A stretch of 64,000 nt of DNA. Origin: Patescibacteria group bacterium. GTDB taxonomy: Bacteria; Patescibacteriota; Microgenomatia; UBA8517. Numbering within the stretch: the stretch's first letter is position 1; every line of letters starts with the position of its first letter. Under the pieces are notes generated by a model. It was not told where the DNA came from. It saw only the letters and a program-made list of their open reading frames with translations, and did no database searches. Of this stretch, positions 1,639-37,397 are shown in pieces. The stretch lies in NCBI GenBank assembly GCA_022868165.1, contig JALHYA010000017.1, positions 11,634-75,633 of the forward strand, written 5' to 3'. The translations under genes and the position numbers were made by a program.

Positions 1639-3615
1639 TCACAAACGCGTTCGCCTAAGGGTCAGTGCGTTGGCTACGACGATAAGCGATGAGGCACTCA
1701 TTAGGATGGCGCCGTATTCGGGGCGAAGCATTATACCCCAGGGGATAAATACTCCAGCTGCAGCCGGAATCGCCAATACGTTATATCCTGTTGCCCAAGC
1801 AAGATTTTGCTTCATCTTAGCATCTGTTTTTCGACTTAGAGCGATTACTTTGACAACATCCAGAGGGTTATTTTTTACTAATACTACTTCTGCGGACTCA
1901 ATGGCGACATCCGTTCCCGCTCCTATTGCGATACCAACATGGGCCTGCGTTAGACTTGGGGCATCGTTTACTCCATCCCCCACCATGCCGACGGTGTGGC
2001 CCATTGATTGAAGTTCTTTTACTTTATTTACCTTATCTTCTGGCAAAACCTCCGCAAAAACGGTATCTATTCCCAATCGTTCCCCCATCTCTTCTGCAAT
2101 CTCCTTTTTATCCCCCGTAAGCATCGCAATCTTTAATCCCATCCCATGAAGTCTATCAATTGCCTTTTTAGACTCCGGACGAACCTCATCTTCCAAAGTG
2201 ATATTGCCGATAAATTTTCCATCCTTCGTTACGGAAATATCTCTTCCTCCAACTTCTATCTTTGATTTTCCGACCATGCCTTCTATTCCCTTGCCTGGAT
2301 ACGATTTAAAATTTCTGACTTTTGGTATATCAATTCCTTTTTCCTTGGCTGCCATGACGATTGCCTTCGCAATCGGGTGCTGAGAATATATCTCAACCGC
2401 CGCGGCCAATCGCAAACACCCTTTGTTTGAAAACTTTGTTACTGCAAAATTTCCCGTTGTTAGCGTTCCGGTTTTGTCAAAAATTATGTAGTCCAGCTTT
2501 CTTGCAATTTCCAATCCCGCCATGTCGCGAATCAAAATCCCATTTCTGGCCGCCACAGCCGAAGTAATCGTTGTAACCGTCGGAATTGCCAATCCCAATG
2601 CGTGGGGACAGGTTATAACAATGACGGTGATGGCCAACGTTACTGCAAAAATCGCTCCGTGGGGATTGATAAAGAACCAATAAATAAAAGTTCCCGAGCC
2701 GACAACTATTGCGACAATTGTGAGTGCGTTTGCGGCTTTATCCGCAAGCTTTTGCACCGACGGCCTTGTTTCTTGAGCTTGACGAATAAGCTCCATTATT
2801 TGGGAGATAGCTGTTTCGCTTCCTGTTTTGGTTACTTTGACAGTCAAGGAGCCGTCATTATTAATAGTTCCGCCGATAACTTTATCGCCATTTTTCTTCC
2901 CTACGGGGCGGGATTCGCCGGTTATCATCCCCTCGTTTACCGAAGACTCTCCGTCTGTTACTACCCCATCGATAGGTATTTTCTCTCCGGGCCTTACCAG
3001 AACAGAATCCCCTACTTTGATTTCCCCGGTCGGGATGTCAACAACATCGCGACCGGACAATTTATGTGCCGCCGGAGGGATTAATTTAGCAAGTTCTCCG
3101 AGAGCATTGCCGGTCCCCAAAACAGCGCGCATCTCCATCCAATGCCCGAAAAGAAATGCCAAAACCAAAGTTGAAATTTCCCACCACAGCGATTCTCCCG
3201 TAAATAAAAATGTTGCGGCAACGGAAAAGAAATATCCCGAAATTACAGCGAGAGAAACCAGCGTCATCATGCCATAATTCTTGTTTCTTAATTCAACCAG
3301 CGCTTCTTTAAAGAATGGCCATCCGCCATAGAGGAAAATTATTGTTACAAGAAAAAATAATGATACATTATGATATGGAAGCGTCTTTTGAAATCCCAAC
3401 CATTGTTGGATTTTTGGAGAAAGAGCTAAAACGAGAATCGTTAGGGGCAGGGCAACAAAAAATCTTCTCTTAAAATCTTCCGCCATCATTGCGTGATGGT
3501 TCTCGTGACCCTTATGCTCCCCCACTTCTACAAGTGACATCCCGCATTTGGGACAAAAACCAGAAGCATCCTGTTTTACTTCAGGATGCATTGGACAAAG
3601 ATATTTATGTTCCAC
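1639..3615 (-). CDS. copper-translocating P1B-type ATPase (CPH motif) with N-terminal YxCPMHPEV...CPKCGM metal-binding module
   Basis: DKTGTLT phosphorylation motif, TGES-like [16 protein letters not shown] transmembrane metal site, GDGVNDAP hinge. The maximal ORF runs to 3723, but that would overlap the upstream gene by 119 nt. A GTG at 3615 ([11 protein letters not shown]) keeps the Cys motif and overlaps by only 11 nt. Confidence 0.9.
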
Positions 3616-4504: not shown

Positions 4505-5067
4505 GCGAAGTTAAGCAATATAAACAAGATTATTGATGCTAGTAATATGCTTCCGAGGCTGAAAAATATCCTTTGATAAGGGAAGTAAACTTTTCCGTTT
4601 CTTTTAATAAGAAAGTTGTCCAAAATATCGACAAGATAAAAAATTGCTCCGCCCAAAACCAGTCCGAAGGTTAATCTATCCAACCCCATTATTTTGCTTA
4701 GATGGGTATTAATTAGGAAAAATTTCAGATTTAGAACCGCCCAGTTGTTAAAAGCATAAAAAGACCATATGGTTAACCCAAAAATCACAACGTAAATGGC
4801 AGGCTTTATAAACTTCCGGATTTGCCCGGAAATTTTGGCGTCGTATTTCCGAAGAATGAATGTGCCAAACCAAAAGGCTATCGCCCCCAAAAATGCCGCC
4901 ATCCAAAGACCTGTTATTGCATCATCAACTCCCAAAAATCTGGCAACGGAAAGCCCTACTACCGCTCCCCCGACACACAACGGACAATGGGCGGAAACCA
5001 CCGGGGGCAATATCAAATAGACACCTGGCAATAGAAGCAAAATTGTGATCTTTAAGGAATTTTTCAT
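4501..5067 (-). CDS. polytopic membrane protein with N-terminal CPxC motif (HCPLCVGG...RFLGVDD)
   Basis: 188 aa, signal-like N-terminus and about 5 TM helices. Paralogue of 5924-6442, sharing C-P-x-C-x(7)-GL-x(2)-R-x-LGVDD. Confidence 0.7.
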   Translation of the reverse strand: MKNSLKITILLLLPGVYLILPPVVSAHCPLCVGGAVVGLSVARFLGVDDAITGLWMAAFLGAIAFWFGTFILRKYDAKISGQIRKFIKPAIYVVIFGLTIWSFYAFNNWAVLNLKFFLINTHLSKIMGLDRLTFGLVLGGAIFYLVDILDNFLIKRNGKVYFPYQRIFFSLGSILLASIILFILLNFA

Positions 5068-5567
5068 TGGACCACATCCCCATTGAAGGTCAGTTCTTTC
5101 ATCCCACCGTCAAAATAAAGCCAAACGCTTCTCTGAACCTGTCCCAAACCTGCCAAACCATGGGCAGCCGGATCGAACCTTACGGTAACTTTGACAGTTT
5201 CGCCGTTTTTAACTGCCAAACTAAGGGTTGGGTTCGCCACACCGCTCATTTCCATTCCATAAAACGAAGATCCTTTCCCGCCGATGGTAACCGATGCTGT
5301 GGTACACATGCAGGATGTGGTGATTTTAAAAAGCTTAATATCCTTACCGGAAGCATTTTTTATCTCATACTCTTTGGTAACCAATCCCCCAGAATAAGGT
5401 ACGTTGCCCAAATCGTAATTTTGAGGATTTGACTCAATACCCTCGACCGGATTTGTAGAAATTGCAGCCTCGGTTTTTTGTTTTGTCGTAACTAAAAAGG
5501 TTAATCCGACAACCAACAAAATTGTTACAATAAAGGCTCCAATAATAAATTTACTTTCTCTGCTCAT
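5064..5567 (-). CDS. DUF1573-like protein with SCMC motif
   Basis: 167 aa with an N-terminal TM anchor, then a beta-rich domain (YDLGNVPYSGGLVTKEYEIKNASGKDIKLFKITTSCMCTTA) typical of DUF1573. Confidence 0.65.
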   Translation of the reverse strand: MSRESKFIIGAFIVTILLVVGLTFLVTTKQKTEAAISTNPVEGIESNPQNYDLGNVPYSGGLVTKEYEIKNASGKDIKLFKITTSCMCTTASVTIGGKGSSFYGMEMSGVANPTLSLAVKNGETVKVTVRFDPAAHGLAGLGQVQRSVWLYFDGGMKELTFNGDVVQ

Positions 5568-12352: not shown

Positions 12353-14086
12353 CTAAGAAGTAACTTTCTGCATCTCAAACAGTTTCTCGAGCTCAACAAA
12401 CGTTGTAACCTGGTCGGGGTTCTTCTCGTCCCTAAACCTGATAAGTCTTGGAAATCTTAAAGCAAGCCCAGCTGAGTGCAAGGGGCTTTTAGTAATTTCA
12501 TCGGCCAGAATTTCGACAACCAACGACGGCTTCGTCCAAATATCGGGAGTAAGATTTTTCGGAACTTCATATTCTTTAGGCTTCTGGGTAACTTCCAGTT
12601 TTCTGGCACGTTTGGCCAATTCTCTCCACTGTTCATCGGTTAGTCCCGTTCCGATTTTTGAAACCGTTTTAAACTCTCCTCCCGATTTTATTCCTACCAA
12701 AAATGCCCCGACGCCAAAGCCCGCCCTTTTTCCTCTCCCTTTATTTACTCCCATAACCAAGCAGTCTATTGTGTCGGCAACTCCTTCATCAGTATGTTTT
12801 TTGTATTTGACCCAATGATAACCTCTTGCACCGGCTTTATATGGCGCATCGATTTTTTTGATAACAGCTCCCTCAAGTCCCTCGGTAAGATATTTCTTAA
12901 TTAAATCGCGGATTTTATCGGGGTCGCTTACCAAATTCTGTCTGGTCAGCTCAACCACTCCGCCGTCTTTTGGCAAAGCATCTTCAAGGGTTTTTCTTCT
13001 TTGGTTAAAAGGCATATCTAAATAGCTTTTTCCGTCTTTAAATAAAATGTCAAAAAGATAAAGCCTTAATGGGAAATTCCTAGCCGCCTCCTCTATGCCG
13101 TGCTTTCTTTTTCTTTGAACGGTTTCTTGGAAAGGCAAAAATTTATCGGTTTTGGGATCATAACCGATTGCCTCTCCGTCAAAAATAGCGGAGGTAACTT
13201 TTATTTTTTTGGCCGCCTCGACTAAATCCGGAAACATGGCTGTTGTGTTTTCCAAATTTCTTGAAAAAATGCGTACCTTTTTCTCTTTTCCCTCATGCCA
13301 AATATGGACCTGGGCTCTAAACCCATCGTATTTAGGCTCAACATACACAGTCTTTCCAACCTTTTCCAAAATCTTTTCGGCTGAAGGAAGCCTTTCGCAG
13401 AGAGAAGCCCTTATCGGTGTTCCCGCTTCCGGTTCGACCTCAGATAAACCAACTAGACCCTTTTCTTTAACTCTTTTGGCAATTTTACCGATATCAACTG
13501 TGACATTGAAAGCGCTTTCGATTTCATGTCTGGCGCTCTTATCCCCTTTCGTCATGTACGAGAGGGCGTCTAGTATTGTCATGTCGGAAAAGCCAAGTCG
13601 AAGCTTGCCAACCGGGATTCTGGCTACGTATCGGGCGGATAATGGGGCAAGCTCGCCCAAAAGTTTTGCCATTTTGCTGACTTTTCTTTCCTGACTTCCC
13701 TCCCCGCCCTCGTCGGCAACTTCCATTAACTTTTCAAAAACTTCGCCGACGGCAAGGTTTATCCCACCGCTGGAGGCTAAATCGGAGGCAACGTTCCCCA
13801 AATCTCCCTCTTTTTTATATAAAAGTTTAATTTTATTAATATCCTCGTCGTAAGCTTGGGCGATAATTCTTAACATCATGCGCTCGGCAATATTAAGAAC
13901 AACGCCTTCGTAGTTGGGGGCAAGCTCGCCCAGTACCAAATAAACGATTTTATCTATTTCCCCGGCTGTGGATTTTTTAAATAAGTCCGCAAGAATCTGA
14001 GTAATTTCGTTTCTTGAAGAAGTTTTTTCCAGTTTTTGGAGATAAGCGGCAAGTTCCGAAAATTTCATACCCATATTATATCTCAT
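12353..14086 (-). CDS. ATP-dependent DNA ligase (archaeal/eukaryal Lig1-like, with DNA-binding domain)
   Basis: Adenylation motif I EPKYDGFRAQV. Later motifs FDGEAI, LYLFDIL and EGAVIK, plus an OB-fold C-terminus. The true start may be MKFSEL at 14068. Confidence 0.9.
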   Translation of the reverse strand: MRYNMGMKFSELAAYLQKLEKTSSRNEITQILADLFKKSTAGEIDKIVYLVLGELAPNYEGVVLNIAERMMLRIIAQAYDEDINKIKLLYKKEGDLGNVASDLASSGGINLAVGEVFEKLMEVADEGGEGSQERKVSKMAKLLGELAPLSARYVARIPVGKLRLGFSDMTILDALSYMTKGDKSARHEIESAFNVTVDIGKIAKRVKEKGLVGLSEVEPEAGTPIRASLCERLPSAEKILEKVGKTVYVEPKYDGFRAQVHIWHEGKEKKVRIFSRNLENTTAMFPDLVEAAKKIKVTSAIFDGEAIGYDPKTDKFLPFQETVQRKRKHGIEEAARNFPLRLYLFDILFKDGKSYLDMPFNQRRKTLEDALPKDGGVVELTRQNLVSDPDKIRDLIKKYLTEGLEGAVIKKIDAPYKAGARGYHWVKYKKHTDEGVADTIDCLVMGVNKGRGKRAGFGVGAFLVGIKSGGEFKTVSKIGTGLTDEQWRELAKRARKLEVTQKPKEYEVPKNLTPDIWTKPSLVVEILADEITKSPLHSAGLALRFPRLIRFRDEKNPDQVTTFVELEKLFEMQKVTS

Positions 14087-14303: not shown

Positions 14304-15368
14304 CTATTTATTGGCAATCACATACTTTGATGCTTTTGTGCTTCCTTCTTTTTTGATAATCCCCTTGTCCAAGGCGTCTTTTAAATCTCTCAAAATCGTA
14401 TCTTCCGAAACCATAGGCAAAACTTTTGTTAGCTCCTGCATATTGGCCGAGCCTTGGTCGGAAATGTATTCGATGAGCCTCATTTGTCTCTCGGTAAGTG
14501 CAATCTGCTGACCGAATTTAACCTTGAGTCTCGTATCAATAGACAATTTGCGGACTTTTTCCTTAACCTTACTAAGCTCCACGGCCACAACTTCGGTAAA
14601 GTACTCAAGCCATGGTGTTAAATCCCTTAGGGCTATGTTTTTGCTTTGCCTGTCCACCCTGGCAAAGGCTTCGTAGTAAGCTGCCGGGTTTTCGTCAAAA
14701 CTTTCCTCCATAGAAAAGAAGCGTTTTATGTCATAGCCTTCACGAATAAGAAGAAGGGTGGTAAAAGCCCTGGCCGTTCTTCCGTTTCCTTCTACAAACG
14801 GGTGGATTGCGACCAAGGTGTAGTGCGCAATTCCGGCGCGAAGAATTGGATGCACTTCCATTGCTTCCGGAGAGTTAAGCCAAGCAAAGAAGTCGTCTAT
14901 AAGGTATGGAACTTCCACAAAAGGAGGCGGCTGAAAAATAATTTGCCCTGTCTCTTCTTCCTTTACAACAACCTCTGTTGTGCGAAAAACACCCGCTTTT
15001 TCATCGGGAATAATCTTAAACACCGTTTCTTTATGAATTTCCTTGAGCATTTCGACATCATATCCTCCCCTTTTAACACCCATGTCGTCCAAAAGTGTGA
15101 CAACGTTTCTGTAATTAATAACTTCCTGAATATCGCGGGCGTGTGCGTAAACCTCCTGCCCTTCCAAGACCTTTTTTGTTTGGACAAGTGTTAGGTCGTT
15201 TCCTTCGATATGGGTTCCATGATAAATCGTTCTGACAATTGCGTCCGACTGGAACTGTTTTTCGAAAGAAGGAACCAATGGGGCGTTTTCAATAACTTCC
15301 TTTGAAGCCTCAACCGCACCGATACTTTTTAAGATTTTACCGGAGATTACGTATTTTGGAGCGTACAT
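14304..15368 (-). CDS. Fic family protein with C-terminal winged-helix domain
   Basis: Fic motif HPFVEGNGRTARAF. N-terminal inhibitory-helix-like HGTHIEGN. C-terminal wHTH-like region (ILRDLKDALDKGIIKK). Confidence 0.88.
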   Translation of the reverse strand: MYAPKYVISGKILKSIGAVEASKEVIENAPLVPSFEKQFQSDAIVRTIYHGTHIEGNDLTLVQTKKVLEGQEVYAHARDIQEVINYRNVVTLLDDMGVKRGGYDVEMLKEIHKETVFKIIPDEKAGVFRTTEVVVKEEETGQIIFQPPPFVEVPYLIDDFFAWLNSPEAMEVHPILRAGIAHYTLVAIHPFVEGNGRTARAFTTLLLIREGYDIKRFFSMEESFDENPAAYYEAFARVDRQSKNIALRDLTPWLEYFTEVVAVELSKVKEKVRKLSIDTRLKVKFGQQIALTERQMRLIEYISDQGSANMQELTKVLPMVSEDTILRDLKDALDKGIIKKEGSTKASKYVIANK

Positions 15369-23489: not shown

Positions 23490-23828
23490 CTAGTGGATTT
23501 TGGACCCGGGCGCAATTTCGTCAATTGGAGCCAAAAGAATACACTCTTCGCCGTCATCGGTTTCTGCGGCCATTATCATCCCCTGCGACTCTTCTTCCAT
23601 CATCTTTTTGGGCTCTAAGTTGAAAACAAAAGCAAAAATTTTCCCTTTTAAATCTTTGGGCGTGTACCACTTTTTGATTCCGGAGAGAATTGTCCTTTTT
23701 CCTTCTTCGCCGAAGTCGACGGCAAGCCGCATTAAGGTTTCGGCGCCCTCAATGTTTTCGGCCTTGAGAACCTTCCCTACCCTGAAATCTATCTTTGAGA
23801 AGTCTTCAAAAGTAATTGTATCGCTCAT
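23490..23828 (-). CDS. tRNA-binding domain protein (CsaA/MetRS C-terminal-like)
   Basis: 112 aa OB-fold pattern FSKIDFRVGKVLKAENIEGAETLMRLAVDFGEE. 4-nt overlap with trpS. Confidence 0.8.
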   Translation of the reverse strand: MSDTITFEDFSKIDFRVGKVLKAENIEGAETLMRLAVDFGEEGKRTILSGIKKWYTPKDLKGKIFAFVFNLEPKKMMEEESQGMIMAAETDDGEECILLAPIDEIAPGSKIH

Positions 23829-24811
23829 ATCAAACCCATTGACTTTTTGACCTCATCCAAAGTCCCTCGCGCAACAGCCCTGGCCCTTTTTGCCCCGTCT
23901 TCGAGCACTCTTTCTACATAAGAAGGGTCTTTTTCAAGAACTGCCCGCCTTTTTTGAATAGGCTCAATTTCCTTATAAATTGCCTGGGCAAGCTTTTCTT
24001 TGAGCTCGGAATATCTAATTCCCTCGCCAAGATACATCTTTTCGTATTTTTCTCTCTCCGCCCCTCCTTCAAAAAGCTCAACAAGTTCCAATAGCGTCGC
24101 CACGCCACCTTTTTCGGGCACTTTCTCCCCACGTCCGGAATCTGTCGGAGTTTTGGCCAGCTTCTCTTTGATGGCTTCCAGGCTGTCGGTTAGGTAAATC
24201 GAGCTTCCCTCAACTGTTTTGGCCATCTTCCCCTCTCCTGTTAATGACGGCACATACTCGCCCTCGGTTACGAATCTTGTCGGTTCCGGAAAGGATAGTC
24301 CATACTTCTCATTCATTTTTCTGGCAATTTCTCTGGTTATCTCAAGATGCGGTTCTTGGTCTATTCCGGTCGGCACAAGCGGAGCTTTATAAGCCAAAAT
24401 GTCGGCCGCCATAAGGATTGGATAGTTGAGAAGGCCAACATTTACGTTCTGGGGGTACTGTTTAACCTTCTCTTTGTAAGTGGGAAGGTGCTGCATGCGG
24501 GCTATTGACACGGCTGTTGAGAAAAGATAGGCCAACTCAACATGCTCGGGAACGTAAGATTGGATAAAAATCGTCGATTTTTCGGGGTCAAGGCCCGCGG
24601 AAAGATAGTCCATTACAACCTCCCTGGTGTTATTTTTGAGCTCCCTGGGGCTATAAGGCGTGGTAAGGGTGTGTAAATCGGCAACCATATAGAAAGTTTC
24701 ATAATCCGGATTATCTTGTAGGACCAGCATGCCCTTGACCGCCCCCAGATAATTACCCAGGTGTAGCCTTCCTGTAGCCCTAATGCCCGATAAAACTCGC
24801 TTTTTGGCCAT
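23825..24811 (-). CDS. trpS: tryptophan--tRNA ligase
   Basis: Class I HIGH-like GRLHLGNYLG, KMSKS-like KMAKT, about 330 aa. The start is Met at 24811 or 24829. Confidence 0.9.
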   Translation of the reverse strand: MAKKRVLSGIRATGRLHLGNYLGAVKGMLVLQDNPDYETFYMVADLHTLTTPYSPRELKNNTREVVMDYLSAGLDPEKSTIFIQSYVPEHVELAYLFSTAVSIARMQHLPTYKEKVKQYPQNVNVGLLNYPILMAADILAYKAPLVPTGIDQEPHLEITREIARKMNEKYGLSFPEPTRFVTEGEYVPSLTGEGKMAKTVEGSSIYLTDSLEAIKEKLAKTPTDSGRGEKVPEKGGVATLLELVELFEGGAEREKYEKMYLGEGIRYSELKEKLAQAIYKEIEPIQKRRAVLEKDPSYVERVLEDGAKRARAVARGTLDEVKKSMGLI

Positions 24812-24857
24812 ATATACGGATTCTACCATTATTGAGGCTAAAGAGGAAATTTACTAG

Positions 24858-24936
24858 TGGCTACGAGAGGATTCGCCGTGCAAAACTTAACCTTGAGAAG
24901 CACTATCGAAACCTCGAGTGGCTACGAGAGGATTCG
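24858..24936. repeat. 18-nt perfect direct repeat of a tRNA 3' end (tggctacgagaggattcg at 24858-24875 and 24919-24936)
   Basis: Read directly. The second copy is the T-loop/acceptor 3' end of the interrupted tRNA-like gene. The first copy lies 61 nt downstream, with its T-loop broken by about 34 nt. Confidence 0.9.
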
Positions 24937-25156
24937 AACCTCTGATCTTGCGCTTATAAGCGTAGCTTGCAAACCCTTCGGGTTTATAAGCGAAGCTTGT
25001 GTCGCGAAATATTGGTGCCAGCGACAGGACTCGAACCTGTGACGGCTCGCTTATGAAACGAGTGCTCTACCGCTGAGCTACGCTGGCATATTTCGCGTCA
25101 TGAAATCCCGCTCTTAGGCGATAGCCGCACCTCTTGGTGCACTGAGCTACGTAGCC
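24919..25156 (-). tRNA. interrupted tRNA-like gene hosting tRNA-Met (complex, possibly degenerate)
   Basis: The minus strand starts GGCTACG TA GCTC AG... at 25156 and ends ...AGAGG TTCGAAT CCTCT CGTAGCC A at 24919, giving a 7/7 complementary acceptor stem. The D-loop region is expanded. A complete tRNA-Met flanked by a 12-bp inverted repeat sits in the anticodon region. I could not build a clean anticodon stem. Confidence 0.45.
25013..25087 (-). tRNA. tRNA-Met (anticodon CAT), CCA encoded
   Basis: GCCAGCG TA GCTC AGCGGTA GAGC A CTCGT TTCATAA GCGAG CCGTC ACAGG TTCGAGT CCTGT CGCTGGC A CCA. Full cloverleaf built by hand. Confidence 0.9.
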
Positions 25157-25263
25157 GCGTCAATGCTTAGCTCGCCTAATTCAATTCTGTCCCTTTCGGG
25201 ACACGAATCTTTACCGCTCGCTAGCCTTTCCTTTCAAAATTGCTAGGCAATTTTGGTGTTTAC

Positions 25264-25282
25264 AAAATCGCAATGCGATTTT
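25264..25282. terminator. palindromic hairpin AAAATCGCA-A-TGCGATTTT (bidirectional terminator-like)
   Basis: 9-nt arms with T-tracts on both strands. Lies about 80 nt downstream of the 25359-25428 tRNA on the minus strand. Confidence 0.4.
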
Positions 25283-25358
25283 GAGAGGAGGAGCCGACTT
25301 GAAATAGCTAAGTCCCGACTAAATCGGGACGAAGCGCAAAAGTCGAGCTCCGACGATG

Positions 25359-25428
25359 TTGCGGGGCTAGGAGTTGAACCTAGCCTGGAAGATTATGAGC
25401 CTTCCGTGCAGCCGTACACTACCCCGCA
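25359..25428 (-). tRNA. tRNA with CAT anticodon (Met or Ile2-type), small D-loop, no encoded CCA
   Basis: TGCGGGG TA GTGT ACGGCT GCAC G GAAGG CTCATAA TCTTC CAGG CTAGG TTCAACT CCTAG CCCCGCA A. U1-A72 pair. No GGG/CCC initiator signature in the anticodon stem. Confidence 0.72.
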
Positions 25429-25454
25429 CGTAGATGAACGGGCTCTATTATACC

Positions 25455-25817
25455 TCAAAGGAACAGTTTCAGCCACTTTCTCCAGGTTGGGTCAGGCAGT
25501 TTTTCTTCCTCTTCCGGTAGCCTCGGAGCCAACTCTTCTAGGATTTTTGTTTCCGGCAAAACTATCACTATTTCGCCCTTTTTAGCCAGCCCCAACTTAT
25601 CCCGTAGCTGTTTTTCAATATATTCCTCGCTCTGGGCTTCTTTAAGTCTAGCTTCCAAGTCGCTATTTTCTCCCTGAAGCTTAGTAATATTTTCCTTTAT
25701 CTTATCTGTCCCCCTTTTTGCTTCAAGTCCTTTGAATACATTTCTAACCAAGGAAATACTCAAAAGCACTGCAAGTCCTAAAAGTAATAAATTCGTATAT
25801 TTTGCTAACTTTTGCAT
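25455..25817 (-). CDS. septum formation initiator (FtsB/DivIC family)
   Basis: 120 aa with an N-terminal TM helix, then a coiled coil ...ENITKLQGENSDLEARLKEAQSEEYIEKQLRDKLGLAKKGEIVI. Confidence 0.8.
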   Translation of the reverse strand: MQKLAKYTNLLLLGLAVLLSISLVRNVFKGLEAKRGTDKIKENITKLQGENSDLEARLKEAQSEEYIEKQLRDKLGLAKKGEIVIVLPETKILEELAPRLPEEEEKLPDPTWRKWLKLFL

Positions 25818-25879
25818 TGTAGCTTATAAGCACAGCTTGTGAGACTTTACTTTAAAAAGTAAACGTCTCATAATATGCG

Positions 25880-25907
25880 TTGACTCAGCAGAAATATGTG
25901 CTAGAAT
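25880..25907 (+). promoter_or_regulatory. sigma70-like promoter TTGACT-N16-TAGAAT for the recombinase gene
   Basis: Hexamers read directly. The -10 is bracketed by an 8-bp inverted repeat, GCAGAAAT (25888-25895) and ATTTCTGC (25923-25930). Confidence 0.55.
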
Positions 25908-25948
25908 ATAGGTCCTGCGAAAATTTCTGCTCCTAAGTTTATCTGATT

Positions 25949-26815
25949 ATGGCACAAGATACTCTAAAAAACCTGCTACCCAAGTTTGTCGAAAGCTTGA
26001 AAACCAAAGGTCGCTCCCCGTCGACCGTTCTCGCCTATCGGGCAGACCTTGAACAGCTTGTACAGTTTCTATTAAGCAAGAATAAGCCCCTTTCGGACCA
26101 GGTTAGACCCAGCGATTTGGAGGGCTTCCGTGACACCCTTTTGGCCGAAAAATACACTCCCAAAAGCGTATCCCGCAAGCTAAACGCCGTCAAAACTTTC
26201 TTTAGATGGCTGATTGCCGAGAATATTCTTACATCCGATCCTTCGGCTTCCGTAGCCCATCCCAAGATAGAAAGTTCTCTTCCCAAGTTTCTTTCCCAGC
26301 TGGAATATAGGGCTCTTCGTGATGTCGTCCGCGGGGATGTCAGAATAGCCGCTATTGTGGAGCTTATCTTGCAAACCGGAATGAGAATTTCCGAGGTTGC
26401 AAACCTTAAAATCGAAAATGTCAAAGAGAATGAAGCAAAAATTGAGGCTTACGCTACCCAGCCCGAGCGCACCGTTCCTCTAAACAAGCCGGCCAAAGAC
26501 GCTCTAAATGCTTATTTGGCAATCAGACCCGACAAAAACGGCTCGCCGTATGTGTTTGTAAGCAAAACCGGTCATCCGTTGGCAGTAAGAAATATAAGGG
26601 CCGCAATAGACAGATATATGCAAAAGGCAGAAGTTCCCGCCTATTCGGTTAATGATTTGAGAACTACTTTTATAGTCGAAAATCTTAAGGCCGGAGTTGA
26701 TTTGGTTCTTCTTTCCCAAGTAACGGGCCACAAAAGACTTTCGACAACCGAGCGTTATTTGGAGTTAGCCCAAGTCACCGAGCCCGGCAAGCGCCAAATC
26801 CTTCAGGAGCTTTAA
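25949..26815 (+). CDS. tyrosine recombinase (XerC/XerD-like integrase family)
   Basis: 288 aa. N-terminal SAM-like core-binding domain. Catalytic residues in TGMRISEV ... TGHKRLSTTERYLEL (R..HxxR..Y). Confidence 0.88.
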   Translation: MAQDTLKNLLPKFVESLKTKGRSPSTVLAYRADLEQLVQFLLSKNKPLSDQVRPSDLEGFRDTLLAEKYTPKSVSRKLNAVKTFFRWLIAENILTSDPSASVAHPKIESSLPKFLSQLEYRALRDVVRGDVRIAAIVELILQTGMRISEVANLKIENVKENEAKIEAYATQPERTVPLNKPAKDALNAYLAIRPDKNGSPYVFVSKTGHPLAVRNIRAAIDRYMQKAEVPAYSVNDLRTTFIVENLKAGVDLVLLSQVTGHKRLSTTERYLELAQVTEPGKRQILQEL

Positions 26816-26820
26816 AAGTT

Positions 26821-27019
26821 TGGTGGAGCCGCTTGGGACCGAACCAAGTACCTGTTGTTTATGATAGAGCTTCACTCTGACATGTCAGCAAAACCTCTGT
26901 GGAACGGGATGGGATCGAACCATCGACCTCATGTTTATAAGACATGTGCTCTAACCACTGAGCTACCGTTCCATTATTGCTGTCATAAGACAACCGCTCT
27001 ACCAATGAGCTACGGCTCC
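26821..27019 (-). tRNA. tRNA gene split in the anticodon loop by a ~130-nt insert (anticodon CAT or TAT depending on junction), CCA encoded
   Basis: The 5' part (27019->26990) reads GGAGCCG TA GCTC ATTGGTA GAGC G GTTGT. The 3' part (26858->26821) reads ACAAC AGGTA CTTGG TTCGGTC CCAAG CGGCTCC A CCA. The acceptor (7/7) and anticodon (5/5) stems are perfectly complementary across the insert. Confidence 0.72.
26900..26972 (-). tRNA. tRNA-Ile (anticodon TAT), located inside the split tRNA
   Basis: GGAACGG TA GCTC AGTGGTTA GAGC A CATGT CTTATAA ACATG AGGTC GATGG TTCGATC CCATC CCGTTCC A. Canonical 73-nt cloverleaf. Confidence 0.9.
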
Positions 27020-27056
27020 ATCGAGGCTATATTATATCAGAAAGAGGCTATTGAAG

Positions 27057-27908
27057 TTACTTTTTCTTCTTTTTATGATTCACGGCTCCTTCAATCTCCT
27101 CCCAATCTCTTACTTTTCGAATCTTCAGATTCTTTTCCCACATGGCTTTTAAGGCGGACATATCCACACCCATATTTTTGGCAAAACCCAAAAGCGCGAC
27201 TGTATCCTTGGGAAAACATTTGCCACCAAAACCCCGAATTGTTGTAACACTAAGGTGGCTCAACCCAATTCTGGGGTCAGCGGCAACCAGTTCCTTTACC
27301 TCGTCATATTTAATACCAAGGGCGGTACACAAGTCGTACATTTCATTCGCAAAAATGACCTTAGAAGCCAAAAGGGCATTGCTCATATATTTAACCATCT
27401 CTGCCGTGGTTGTATCCGTAATAAAAATTTTTGCTTTTGGTCCCAATAGGTCCCTATAAAGAGCAACCAATCTTTCCGAAACAGACTGGGAAAGGGCCCC
27501 TATTATTGTTCTGTCTGGGTGTAAAAAATCCCAAGGGCCATTGGCTTCAGTTAAAAATTCGGGGTTCATCGCAAAAAGCGTTTCCGGATACTTCTTTTTG
27601 AACGATACCGTTGTTCCGGGAACCACGGTGGATTTTATTGTGAGAATTTTATCTGTTTTCACTATTTTGGGTGCGATTCTATCAACAACCTCTTTGATCA
27701 CCGATAAATCGATCCCGCTGTTGTCGGAAAACATTGGAGTAGGAACACAAACAAATATAAATTCCGACTCGGATATTACTTTTTGAAGCGAAGCAGGACC
27801 TTTTTTATACTTATCCCACCAGAAAATTTCGTTTTCTTTGTTTCTAGCAAAACCTTCTCCGACGGCTTTCCCTACTATCCCCCAGCCGATAATTCCGATT
27901 TTAGCCAT
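27057..27908 (-). CDS. UDP-glucose/GDP-mannose dehydrogenase family protein, short form lacking the C-terminal nucleotide-sugar domain
   Basis: N-terminal Rossmann MAKIGIIGWGIVGKAVG. Catalytic Cys region GFGGKCFPKD. Ends after 283 aa with a KKKKK tail. Confidence 0.75.
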   Translation of the reverse strand: MAKIGIIGWGIVGKAVGEGFARNKENEIFWWDKYKKGPASLQKVISESEFIFVCVPTPMFSDNSGIDLSVIKEVVDRIAPKIVKTDKILTIKSTVVPGTTVSFKKKYPETLFAMNPEFLTEANGPWDFLHPDRTIIGALSQSVSERLVALYRDLLGPKAKIFITDTTTAEMVKYMSNALLASKVIFANEMYDLCTALGIKYDEVKELVAADPRIGLSHLSVTTIRGFGGKCFPKDTVALLGFAKNMGVDMSALKAMWEKNLKIRKVRDWEEIEGAVNHKKKKK

Positions 27909-35337: not shown

Positions 35338-35410
35338 CCATTCCCAAAGGACATGAAGGAAGATAAGCAAAGCTTGCGACTTAGTCTAAAGCAAAGCTTG
35401 CTGCTTCGCA
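35338..35410 (-). pseudogene. remnant of a CPBP protease 3' end with a ~24-nt tandem duplication
   Basis: 35338-35364 is 26/27 identical to 35627-35653, the 3' end of the intact CPBP gene. The minus-strand reading gives ...TKSQALLIFLHVLWEW versus TKNVFSSIFLHVLWEW, preceded by a stop and a duplicated unit sharing AAGCAAAGCTTGC. Confidence 0.55.
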
Positions 35411-36729: not shown

Positions 36730-37397
36730 TATTTTATTCCCAAAGTAACCGAAATGGTCAATTTTCCGCTGCTTTCGGCAAGTCCAACAAATCCGCTCGT
36801 TTTGTCCTTCTCAAAAGAAATAGTCTGCATTGCCTCTTGAGCAAGCTCGTTGTCTATCTTCCAACCACCAGCCGTAAGTTTATCTTTATAGAATAATTTT
36901 ACTTGGGTCACCGAGTCCGTCGTTTCCCAAACGACAGAAATTCCCTTGCTGTCTTCTCCGGTGGTTGTCCAAGAGGATGTTAGTTTGGCTCCGGGATAAA
37001 TCGGAAAATCGCTTGGGAAACCATCCGGCAGTTTTCCTTCTGCCGAGTAGGAAAACTGTCCTCCCTTACCGTCGAAGCTAATCTTTTTGCCGTCATTCTC
37101 CACCTTGACGTTTTCTCCTGCTGTCTTGGAAAGGAAAAGTGAGAGAAATTTTGAACTGATTTTCCCCCCTAAGCTTCTCCACAAAACCCGGGCCGCAAAT
37201 CCAACCAAAACCAAAACGGCAAGAACCGATAAGAGAATAATCAGTAGCTTGTTAGACTTTTTCTTGGGCTCTTCCTTTTCTTCTTTTTTATCTTCCAGTT
37301 TATCTTCCAAAAGAAACTCACCTCCTACCAAAAAACAATAGTCCAATAATATTATCATGCGGGGTTTTAAGTCAAACCCCGAAAGCCTGTATGACAT
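36729..37397 (-). CDS. membrane-anchored extracytoplasmic protein, function unknown
   Basis: 222 aa. Charged KE-rich N-terminus, one TM helix (LLIILLSVLAVLVLVGFAA), and a beta-rich C-terminal domain (FPIYPGAKL...VKLFYKDKLTAGGWKI). Confidence 0.6.
   Translation of the reverse strand: MSYRLSGFDLKPRMIILLDYCFLVGGEFLLEDKLEDKKEEKEEPKKKSNKLLIILLSVLAVLVLVGFAARVLWRSLGGKISSKFLSLFLSKTAGENVKVENDGKKISFDGKGGQFSYSAEGKLPDGFPSDFPIYPGAKLTSSWTTTGEDSKGISVVWETTDSVTQVKLFYKDKLTAGGWKIDNELAQEAMQTISFEKDKTSGFVGLAESSGKLTISVTLGIK

Follow-up and report, generated by a model that had tools for sequence, protein, structure and literature searches.

Complete tRNA genes inserted into the anticodon loops of other tRNA genes on either side of a Xer-like gene in a Patescibacteria group bacterium

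Background

In a 64,000-nt stretch from a Patescibacteria group bacterium (GenBank assembly GCA_022868165.1, contig JALHYA010000017.1, positions 11,634 to 75,633; hereafter the window), two tRNA loci each carry one complete tRNA gene within the anticodon loop of another, and a tyrosine-recombinase homologue, here called the Xer-like gene, lies between them (window positions 24,858 to 27,019). The locus raises the question of how one tRNA gene came to lie within another, and whether the neighbouring recombinase put it there. An earlier reading made from the letters of this stretch (the sequence-only reading) had proposed that the recombinase recognises TTATAA-type palindromes and moves tRNA cassettes into tRNA genes; as a more ordinary alternative it had named a chromosomal Xer recombinase that merely adjoins a tRNA cluster. 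The explanation favoured here combines a bystander Xer-like protein, anticodon loops that are hot spots for insertion, and copying of tRNA cassettes triggered by an endonuclease. As a whole it was given a probability of roughly 0.5.

Empty and filled insertion sites

At these loci, the tRNA finders ARAGORN and Rfam reported three tRNAs only, namely the two inner genes and an intact tRNA(CAU). The interruption stays unannotated because both programs report the inner tRNA and miss the outer gene; ARAGORN in intron mode also missed the outer tRNAs. These were recognised by reading the minus strand and by using a custom stem-based scanner, and both nested loci of the sequence-only reading were thereby confirmed. 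At locus 1, a complete tRNA-Met(CAU) (25013-25087, Rfam 69.3 bits) is enclosed by two halves, and the acceptor strands of these pair at 7/7 positions (25156-25150 / ...24919). At locus 2, a complete tRNA-Ile(UAU) (26900-26972, Rfam 76.5 bits) lies between a 5' half at 27019-26985 and a 3' half at 26860-26821. Rfam searched at E<=1 across 24700-27200 returned tRNAs only, with no intron, ribozyme or other RNA family.

Related loci are labelled L0xx to L2xx. An empty site was found in L202, a JGI contig with a recombinase 97% identical to that of the window, where the same outer tRNA-Ile(UAU) is uninterrupted and has the same promoter, the same downstream sequence and near-identical flanks. Alignment of the window with L202 gave a clean 124-nt insertion between CTTAT and AA and a single further difference, in the T-loop. 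The site reads GTTGT-CTTATAA-ACAAC when empty (L202) and GTTGT-CTTAT[GAC...ATCAT]AA-ACAAC when filled (window). No target base was lost, and the boundary is ambiguous by the dinucleotide AT alone. The nesting is an insertion at the DNA level. Brute-force deletion was also tried for fixing the junction and was too permissive; the L202 empty site settled it. In a test for miniature inverted-repeat transposable elements, the 2-nt AT ambiguity was compatible with target duplication, and the inverted repeats past GAC/GTC varied between cassettes.

The tRNA-Met locus of L202 is wholly unlike that of the window. L204, with a recombinase 94% identical, has a different tRNA-Ile, a 3'-half relic after it, and an additional ORF (open reading frame). 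This ORF (282 aa, 1379-2227) had no match in Pfam and separates the Xer-like gene from the tRNA-Ile locus.

Recurrence among related loci

The sample of related loci comprised the 80 loci most similar to the Xer-like gene in GTDB genomes, mostly labelled Woesebacteria, Microgenomates or Patescibacteria; the window itself belongs to a Woesebacteria genome, and an identical Xer-like protein is encoded on a Logan contig. A tRNA-Ile(UAU) gene, hyper-diverse and mosaic in sequence, adjoins the Xer-like gene in 73/81 loci. Nested or relic forms were present at 29/73 of these (~40%): 11 were fully nested, 5 had a 5' half upstream only and 13 had a 3' half downstream only. Two loci (L016, L017) were nested more than once. 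When all tRNAs were compared with the related loci by BLAST, half-tRNAs outside annotated genes were found to break at tRNA positions ~34-37; the DNA-level insertion is recurrent and restricted to the anticodon loop. BLAST of the outer halves themselves gave almost no matches because tRNA sequences turn over too fast, and the structural scanner and the all-tRNA BLAST worked instead. A pattern scan of metagenomes added ten nested cases, with the same neighbouring genes wherever the flank suffices. A phage origin of the cassettes was considered and rejected, as the IMG/VR pattern scan yielded 9 chance matches, none with a tRNA inside. No literature on nested tRNAs in bacteria of the candidate phyla radiation (CPR) was found.

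Neither tRNA-Ile(UAU) nor the 71-nt tRNA(CAU) faces the same way in all species; flips were seen in L014, L021, L023, L026, L028, L029, L056 and L069, and L079 (5001-5040) holds an inverted 3'-half relic. DNA inversions have therefore taken place at these loci.

Cassette structure

The usual left junction is CTTAT^GAC (TTCAT^GAC for tRNA-Met) and the usual right junction is GTCAT^AA, where the caret marks the boundary. Beside the inner tRNA, a cassette leader of 10-12 nt pairs with the trailer; median complementarity was 9 nt in 28 nested tRNAs versus 4 nt in 180 others (p=1e-13). A GAYATGTCAG...CTGTCAT module is added in many cassette trailers. The leader and trailer of the tRNA-Met cassette in the window form inverted repeat I4 (13 nt, 92% complementary), and its left junction is TTTCAT^GAC. 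Leader and trailer sequences diverge widely from cassette to cassette. In L003, TTATGAC/GTCATAA becomes TTACGAC/GTCGTAA, a change on both sides. An inner tRNA always has the orientation and the anticodon of the outer one. One cassette family, with acceptor GGGCGTG, occupies several different resident tRNA-Ile genes, and its copies in L173 and L091 have taken over the body of the resident tRNA. That tRNA cassettes move into tRNA genes, the first half of the earlier proposal, is thus upheld by the empty and filled pair and by related cassettes in different residents.

Such cassettes could be moved in trans by an enzyme encoded outside the window: an IS200/IS605-type HUH transposase, a serine recombinase with a 2-bp AT crossover, or an IS110-type recombinase. 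The HUH mode would insert 3' of TTAT/TTAC, with hairpin ends and no duplication, and the cassettes lie exactly 3' of CTTAT without target loss and have hairpin-forming ends. In addition, TTAT/TTAC variation in the left flank is matched by a right-end change, and a 'circle-junction-like' palindrome, GTCAT^GAC, occurs in L060. However, no such gene was found in the window or in ±4 kb of the related loci with inspected ORFs, and the cassette ends vary more than a sequence-specific transposase would allow. For the window, ORFs of at least 90 aa were scanned directly for domains and the middle ~20 kb was covered through precomputed Pfam annotation; no transposase or further recombinase domain was seen. 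We consider mobilisation by an enzyme of these types improbable.

Decay of the outer halves

Outer halves are degenerate in L018, L016 and window locus 1, and relic halves of several loci carry hairpin insertions. At locus 1, an insertion interrupts the D-loop of the outer 5' half, whose anticodon-stem strand does not pair with that of the 3' half; because of this mismatch the outer tRNA 1 is a composite relic. Since outer halves are often degenerate or hairpin-interrupted and the locus 1 stem is unpaired, the outer genes are dying and are not spliced.

This bears on a reading of the nested tRNAs as true introns, in which the unit would be transcribed as a whole, RNase P and RNase Z would free the inner tRNA, and helix-held outer halves would be joined into a second functional tRNA, as in archaeal split tRNAs. 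The constant co-orientation of inner and outer tRNAs, the helices flanking the inner tRNA and a predicted RNA fold (z = -3.7 and -4.7) in which the acceptor stem of the outer tRNA and the cloverleaf of the inner one are both retained are in its favour. Against it stand the visible degeneration in several genomes and the unpaired stem at locus 1. Nor do the junctions offer what splicing would use: there is no match to a group I intron or other ribozyme, the group I splice-site nucleotides (a U just upstream of the 5' splice site and a G as the last intron base) are not both available, and the TTATGAC/GTCATAA junctions pair continuously, without the bulges of a bulge-helix-bulge motif. Splicing of the outer tRNAs was accordingly rated as highly improbable.

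A direct duplication of the tRNA 3' end, 19-20 nt long (24857-24875 and 24918-24936), and the conserved 71-nt tRNA(CAU) had both escaped the sequence-only reading. Tandem relics beginning in the T-loop, analogous to the orphan relic of the window (Table 1), were seen in L070. Separately, short G+C-rich hairpins break relic tRNA halves in the T-loop or D-loop in L041 (~4960-5010), L050 (~5240-5300) and L017 (~3200-3270), and the outer 5' half of the window (25125-25138) shows the same kind of interruption, which suggests a second kind of small palindromic insert.

The Xer-like gene

The Xer-like protein has a tyrosine-recombinase fold with a SAM-like core-binding domain (PF00589, 2.8e-27; PF02899, 2.7e-16). 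A tblastn search of the 64 kb and the domain scans revealed no other tyrosine-recombinase homologue, and a genome scan gave one locus of the gene per species genome. Several statements of the sequence-only reading were borne out here: the ORF is the only recombinase of the window, it lies with the divIC/ftsB-like gene between the two nested loci, it has a TTGACT-16-TAGAAT promoter, and the inverted repeat AGCAGAAAT/ATTTCTGCT flanking that promoter is readable.

The best family scores were 160 bits for XerC (cut-off 335), 155 for XerD (330) and 152 for XerA (220), all under the equivalog cut-offs, and the nearest solved structures were XerA and XerD (PDB 5hxy, 1a0p). By alignment to E. coli XerD, K172 is replaced by T or S and H244 by N in 81/81 orthologues; R148, R247, H270 and Y279 are retained in 81/81 Woesebacteria orthologues. 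The wider clade was surveyed by an exhaustive search of cluster representatives (~60; P0241-P0377 and the window protein). The GKG lysine is absent from every clade member, nearly all have VNDLR, and ~24 of the ~60 representatives have further lost R148 or Y279. Canonical GKGxKER/HxLRH proteins turned up only at <=37% identity. The catalytic hexad R-K-H-R-H/W-Y is therefore incomplete in the Xer-like protein and throughout its clade, and the eroded active site makes catalytic competence doubtful.

The gene keeps the same synteny, with divIC and the same tRNAs, in 80 species loci whether nested or not, and synteny with its neighbours persists in a relative of 47% identity. It is not variably present, as the gene of an integrative island would be, and the tRNA 3'-end repeat brackets ~42 nt only, with the gene outside. 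The Xer-like protein is a Xer-derived, vertically inherited core gene product of Woesebacteria/Microgenomates, paired with a divIC-like gene. Given this core-gene synteny and the clade-wide active-site losses, it can be counted neither as a textbook Xer nor as an integrase carried by the cassettes, and is most likely a bystander to events in the flanking tRNA genes.

The second half of the earlier proposal, that the recombinase drives the cassettes, was not supported. It can be stated as recognition of folded or palindromic TTATAA-type sites by the adjacent Xer-like protein, which would insert hairpin cassettes by one-strand exchange, compare integron attC sites and the CTX phage. The gene is the only one of its family in the window and, in every species, adjoins the tRNAs that are hot spots. 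Tyrosine integrases classically target anticodon loops and T-loops, and one breakpoint does lie in a T-loop. The cassette-end hairpins conserve structure while varying in sequence, with one both-sided change, as attC-like sites would show, and tRNA orientation flips between species. Against these points, the catalytic Lys and His-II are gone in all 81 orthologues and in the clade, with Tyr or Arg-I gone in many; the junctions have only a 2-nt AT in common, versus the 6-8 bp overlap required for canonical tyrosine recombination; and the integron-integrase model TIGR02249 gave 57 bits versus a cut-off of 265. The adjacency is accounted for by synteny older than the cassettes, and the gene is equally conserved at loci without nesting. 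We regard this role for the enzyme as quite improbable.

The plainer idea of a working chromosomal Xer that resolves dimers at a dif site elsewhere, unrelated to the tRNAs and with an odd active site as a peculiarity of the lineage, has several points in its favour. The protein resembles XerC, XerD and XerA, which are its best family matches, in its two-domain architecture (SAM-like N-terminal and catalytic domains), in being chromosomal and in lying beside a cell-division gene, which is its partner in all relatives; it is the sole homologue of its kind in the window, at one locus per species genome, and R, R, H and Y are retained in Woesebacteria. It differs from them in falling far under the XerC and XerD equivalog thresholds and in the clade-wide replacement of Lys and His-II, and Tyr and Arg, too, can be lost within the clade. 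A dif-like site was absent from the 64-kb window, where the dif sequences of E. coli and B. subtilis were matched at 20/28 bases at most; this is a weak point, as the window is not at the skew terminus. Its GC skew is uniformly negative with no switch and, together with the missing dif-like site, this places the window away from the replication terminus. Of the plain chromosomal Xer of the sequence-only reading, the Xer derivation and chromosomal status hold and the textbook identity does not; a working Xer was judged unlikely.

Palindromes of 11-6-11 geometry occur in the 64 kb at chance level. One of this chance-level class, AGTTTTCCTTC-TGCCGA-GTAGGAAAACT at 37029-37058, has dif-like geometry with 10/11 arm bases matching and lies within an ORF. 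A full ATAA-N6-8-TTAT site with palindromic arms was not found in the window, and reading the TTATGAC/GTCATAA cassette ends as dif-like was rejected on these grounds.

In the CPR-wide clade, which is divIC-linked in the loci inspected, the eroded sites of these Xer-derived proteins would imply either a non-catalytic role in division or a different mode of dimer resolution in the CPR.

The palindrome and its hairpin motif

The recurrence of the palindrome GCTTATAAGC at 24952-24961 and 25822-25831, described in the sequence-only reading, was reproduced (2 found versus 0.05 expected). A longer repeat that contains it, CAAGCTNNGCTTATAA, has three minus-strand copies versus 0.02 expected. The palindrome makes up the end of an 18-nt repeat (family D4), a member of the dispersed motif AAGC-N3-GCTTG, which was found 7 times in the window versus 0.66 expected and 61 times in 676 kb (window and related loci) versus ~10 expected when pattern length alone is considered. 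The motif can fold on the plus strand as a hairpin with G-T pairs.

Among the relatives, the motif lies upstream of tRNA-Ile genes as ...AAGCTTTGCTATAAT, is fused to tRNA-Ile 5' halves exactly at CTTATAAG (L045, L035/L039, L073), and is fused to tRNA-Met D-loop fragments (L070, L071). The region upstream of divIC in L202 has two copies, GCTTATAAGa and GCTTATAAGg, and divergence from the window, by an indel, begins right after GCTTATAAG. The exact palindrome is not conserved, since the copies in this 97% relative differ at the end of the 10-mer, and the exact 10-mer upstream of ftsB, missing from L202, is a junction specific to the strain. The likeness of the palindrome to the Ile anticodon loop is better read as shared sequence aiding illegitimate joining than as a protein recognition site: because CTTATAAG is common to both, the motif that contains GCTTATAAGC can recombine with the tRNA-Ile loop, and it would do so in the explanation favoured here.

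Two other roles were considered and set aside. A simple promoter would fit the copies upstream of some tRNAs and of divIC; elsewhere the motif is in the wrong orientation (23466) or in tandem (35365-35400). A PsiI-like restriction enzyme cutting TTA^TAA is not indicated, as TTATAA is not avoided (36 observed versus 36.3 expected). The tandem copies at 35365-35400 are a pair of (A/T)AAGCAAAGCTTGC, 24 nt apart and intergenic, with similar arrays in L045 (5477-5511) and L052 (435-495); these may serve as an operator, a REP-like (repetitive extragenic palindromic) element or a promoter module.

A candidate endonuclease family

An ORF of ~227 aa lies beside these tRNAs in 22 related loci, in two sets that form separate subfamilies. 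The Met-type ORF is beside the elongator tRNA-Met in 12 loci (immediately 5' in 10), and the Ile-type ORF is immediately 5' of tRNA-Ile(UAU) in 10 loci. Pfam recognised only an N-terminal transposase-like helix-turn-helix (HTH), and a profile of the family matched I-DmoI (E=6e-4). The predicted alpha-beta-beta-alpha-beta-beta-alpha order is that of the LAGLIDADG fold, with an acidic residue ending the motif helix, and the Glu-Gly that closes this helix is invariant in the family.

A split tRNA(CAU) was next door in 12/12 Met-type loci, and the HTH-LAGLIDADG gene is directly beside the split tRNA(CAU) in 12 loci. In the three loci tested, the interruption is a group I intron in the anticodon loop (RF00028, 60-75 bits; L002 2562-2791, L005 2504-2697, L022 3125-3331), and a split tRNA(CAU) is present in 13 more loci. 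The arrangement of a Met-type ORF with an intron-split tRNA(CAU) resembles collaborative homing (compare PMC2790892). Relics were found at 0/10 loci with the Ile-type ORF versus 29/63 of the others (p about 0.004). Five distant relatives on IMG/VR contigs (L217-L221) lie in or beside tRNA genes of phages of 88-446 kb, 4/5 of them inside arrays of 6-21 tRNAs.

By its association with tRNA genes, this family is a better candidate driver than the Xer-like protein, and it would be expected to cleave, site-specifically, alleles without the endonuclease gene. The family, with ~960 unannotated members tied to tRNA genes of CPR bacteria and large phages, was a by-product of the analysis.

Proposed explanation

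In the favoured explanation, the flanking genes for elongator tRNA-Met(CAU), the conserved tRNA(CAU) and tRNA-Ile(UAU) would be hot spots for selfish anticodon-loop insertions. Two small hairpin cassettes have entered the loop centre in the window, at CTTAT^AA (Ile) and TTCAT^.. (Met), each of them a complete same-anticodon tRNA with a leader and a complementary trailer, usually with a GAC start and a GTC end. The insertion would kill the resident gene, the nested copy would take over its function, and the outer halves then decay, as is seen. As the trigger we infer a double-strand break in anticodon-loop DNA, made by tRNA-gene-associated HTH-LAGLIDADG endonucleases encoded elsewhere in the genome or population; repair would copy the cassette in through the few loop bases common to each junction. 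The Xer-like protein would be uninvolved in the insertion.

Several observations weigh against this explanation. No homing-endonuclease gene was found in the 64-kb window; the proposed agent is missing from the fragment, and the insertion enzyme can for that reason only be inferred. All Woesebacteria orthologues retain R, R, H and Y, so that residual catalysis by the Xer-like protein is possible. All nested cases lie within a few kb of the Xer-like gene; conserved synteny accounts for this proximity, which also leaves a dependence on the gene conceivable. Break repair does not readily account for inverted repeats that keep their structure and vary in sequence, or for the both-sided change in L003; a hairpin recombination site or an RNA helix would fit both features better. 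As the cassette hairpin is kept whatever its sequence, folded-DNA recombination, an unseen trans-acting enzyme and an RNA-level constraint are all alive as alternatives.

More tentatively, the ~125-bp 'replacement-tRNA cassette' may represent an undescribed class of selfish hairpin that homes into the cognate anticodon loop and is mobilised in trans, by the HTH-LAGLIDADG family that also occurs in jumbo phages or, with lower probability, by the Xer-like protein acting on folded DNA. If so, the resident gene would be destroyed and the cell would depend on the incoming copy, and repeated rounds would lead to Russian-doll nests and half-tRNA graveyards. Among the known occupants of tRNA genes, introns splice out and integrative islands rebuild the 3' end of the gene; cassettes that are discrete mobile units would be a third way for selfish DNA to occupy an essential tRNA gene, by way of a spare copy. 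Their mobility would also explain the extreme turnover of tRNA-Ile(UAU) and tRNA-Met sequences in Woesebacteria.

Comparison with known systems

None of the closest known systems agrees with the cassettes on defining features. Integrative elements with tyrosine integrases directed at the anticodon loop or T-loop of a tRNA gene are reportedly covered by the 2002 classification of Williams. Like these, the cassettes have breakpoints in the anticodon loop and once in a T-loop, and a direct repeat of a tRNA 3' end is present; in contrast, a cassette is ~125 bp, has no integrase, brings a whole replacement tRNA instead of a rebuilt gene and shares 2 nt, not 7, at its junctions.

Integron attC sites and CTX-phage attP hairpins are substrates defined by a folded inverted repeat, and the inverted repeat of the cassettes likewise varies in sequence and keeps its structure. 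The cassettes differ in having no GTTRRRY/RYYYAAC core sites, in ending in TTATGAC/GTCATAA, in being nested rather than in a linear array, and in the lack of an integron-type integrase.

In archaeal intron-containing and split tRNAs, the gene is interrupted next to the anticodon. The break beside the anticodon and complementary sequences able to hold the halves are common to both; here, however, the host is bacterial, there is no bulge-helix-bulge, the outer halves decay, and what lies between them is itself a tRNA gene.

Patescibacteria with group I introns in the anticodon loops of their tRNAs have been described (PMC13011429), in an account that is silent on nested tRNAs. The phylum and the anticodon-loop target are the same, and the tRNA(CAU) of relatives carries RF00028 introns; the cassettes, in contrast, have no ribozyme match, are half the minimal intron size, do not provide both splice nucleotides and bear a tRNA.

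SegB of phage T4 is a free-standing GIY-YIG homing endonuclease within the T4 tRNA gene cluster (PMC2330249; PMC13096335). The HTH-LAGLIDADG ORFs similarly lie among tRNA-Met/Ile genes and phage tRNA arrays, and would favour inheritance or rearrangement of the linked tRNA region. Unlike SegB, they have a LAGLIDADG fold and are known from sequence alone, and none is encoded in the window.

Gene order and other features of the window

The minus-strand gene order is trpS (23825-24829), the tRNA cluster (24858-25428) and the DivIC/FtsB-like gene, followed by the Xer-like gene on the plus strand and the second tRNA locus (26821-27019), past which lie a UDP-glucose-dehydrogenase-like gene and a VirD4/TrwB-like gene. 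Coordinates are collected in Table 1. The 71-nt tRNA(CAU) is 94-100% identical across the related loci.

Table 1 Features of the nested tRNA loci and the genes between them
Feature	Position	Strand	Basis or remark
Orphan relic, tRNA T-arm and 3' acceptor strand (GGCGAATCCTCTCGTAGCCA)	24858..24877	-	Repeats outer tRNA 3' end 61 nt upstream; family D1
3' half of outer tRNA 1: loop CTTATAA, stem, variable loop, T-arm, acceptor CGTAGCC-A	24919..24960	-	Scanner; holds first GCTTATAAGC
Two CAAGCTNNGCTTATAA motif copies (24954-24969, 24984-24999) split by hairpin AAACCCGAAGGGTTT	24954..24999	-	Repeat search
tRNA-Met cassette: leader GACGCGAAATAT 25099-25088, tRNA-Met(CAU)+CCA 25087-25013, trailer ATATTTCGCGAC 25012-25001	25001..25099	-	ARAGORN, Rfam
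5' half of outer tRNA 1: acceptor GGCTACG, D-arm, loop ...TTCAT; decaying pseudogene	25100..25156	-	D-loop hairpin insertion GCACCAAGAGGTGC
Conserved 71-nt tRNA(CAU), probably initiator; uninterrupted in window	25358..25428	-	ARAGORN/Rfam
DivIC/FtsB-like septum-formation gene	25455..25817	-	PF04977 E=1.5e-14; adjoins Xer-like gene in all related loci inspected
Third motif copy with second GCTTATAAGC; hairpin CTTATAAGC-ACA-GCTTGTGAG, divIC/xer-like intergenic region	25822..25843	+	Repeat search
Sigma-70-like promoter of Xer-like gene, TTGACT-16-TAGAAT, TG before -10	25880..25907	+	Sequence
Xer-derived tyrosine-recombinase homologue, 288 aa	25949..26815	+	Phage_integrase and Phage_int_SAM_1; active site R-T/A-N-R-H-Y vs R-K-H-R-H-Y
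3' half of resident outer tRNA-Ile(UAU), CCA-terminated	26821..26860	-	Same as intact L202 gene save one T-loop base
124-nt cassette: leader GACAGCAATAAT 26984-26973, tRNA-Ile(UAU) 26972-26900, trailer ...CTGACATGTCAG...CTCTATCAT 26899-26861	26861..26984	-	Absent in L202
5' half of resident outer tRNA-Ile(UAU)	26985..27019	-	Preceded by TATAAT promoter at 27031-27036

The 200-nt spacer between the two tRNA(CAU) genes (25157-25357) contains several perfect hairpins, for example CAAAATCGCA/TGCGATTTTG and GTCCCGATTTAGTCGGGAC; it had no Rfam match, and part of it is common to L018 and L202. Elsewhere in the window, a gene for a bacterial type IB topoisomerase (PF01028, PF21338; 62895-63902, minus strand) encodes the sole other enzyme whose catalytic core is tyrosine-recombinase-like. 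An ATP-dependent DNA ligase with three domains (N, adenylation and C; 12353-14086, minus strand) adjoins a Fic-domain protein (14304-15368, minus strand).

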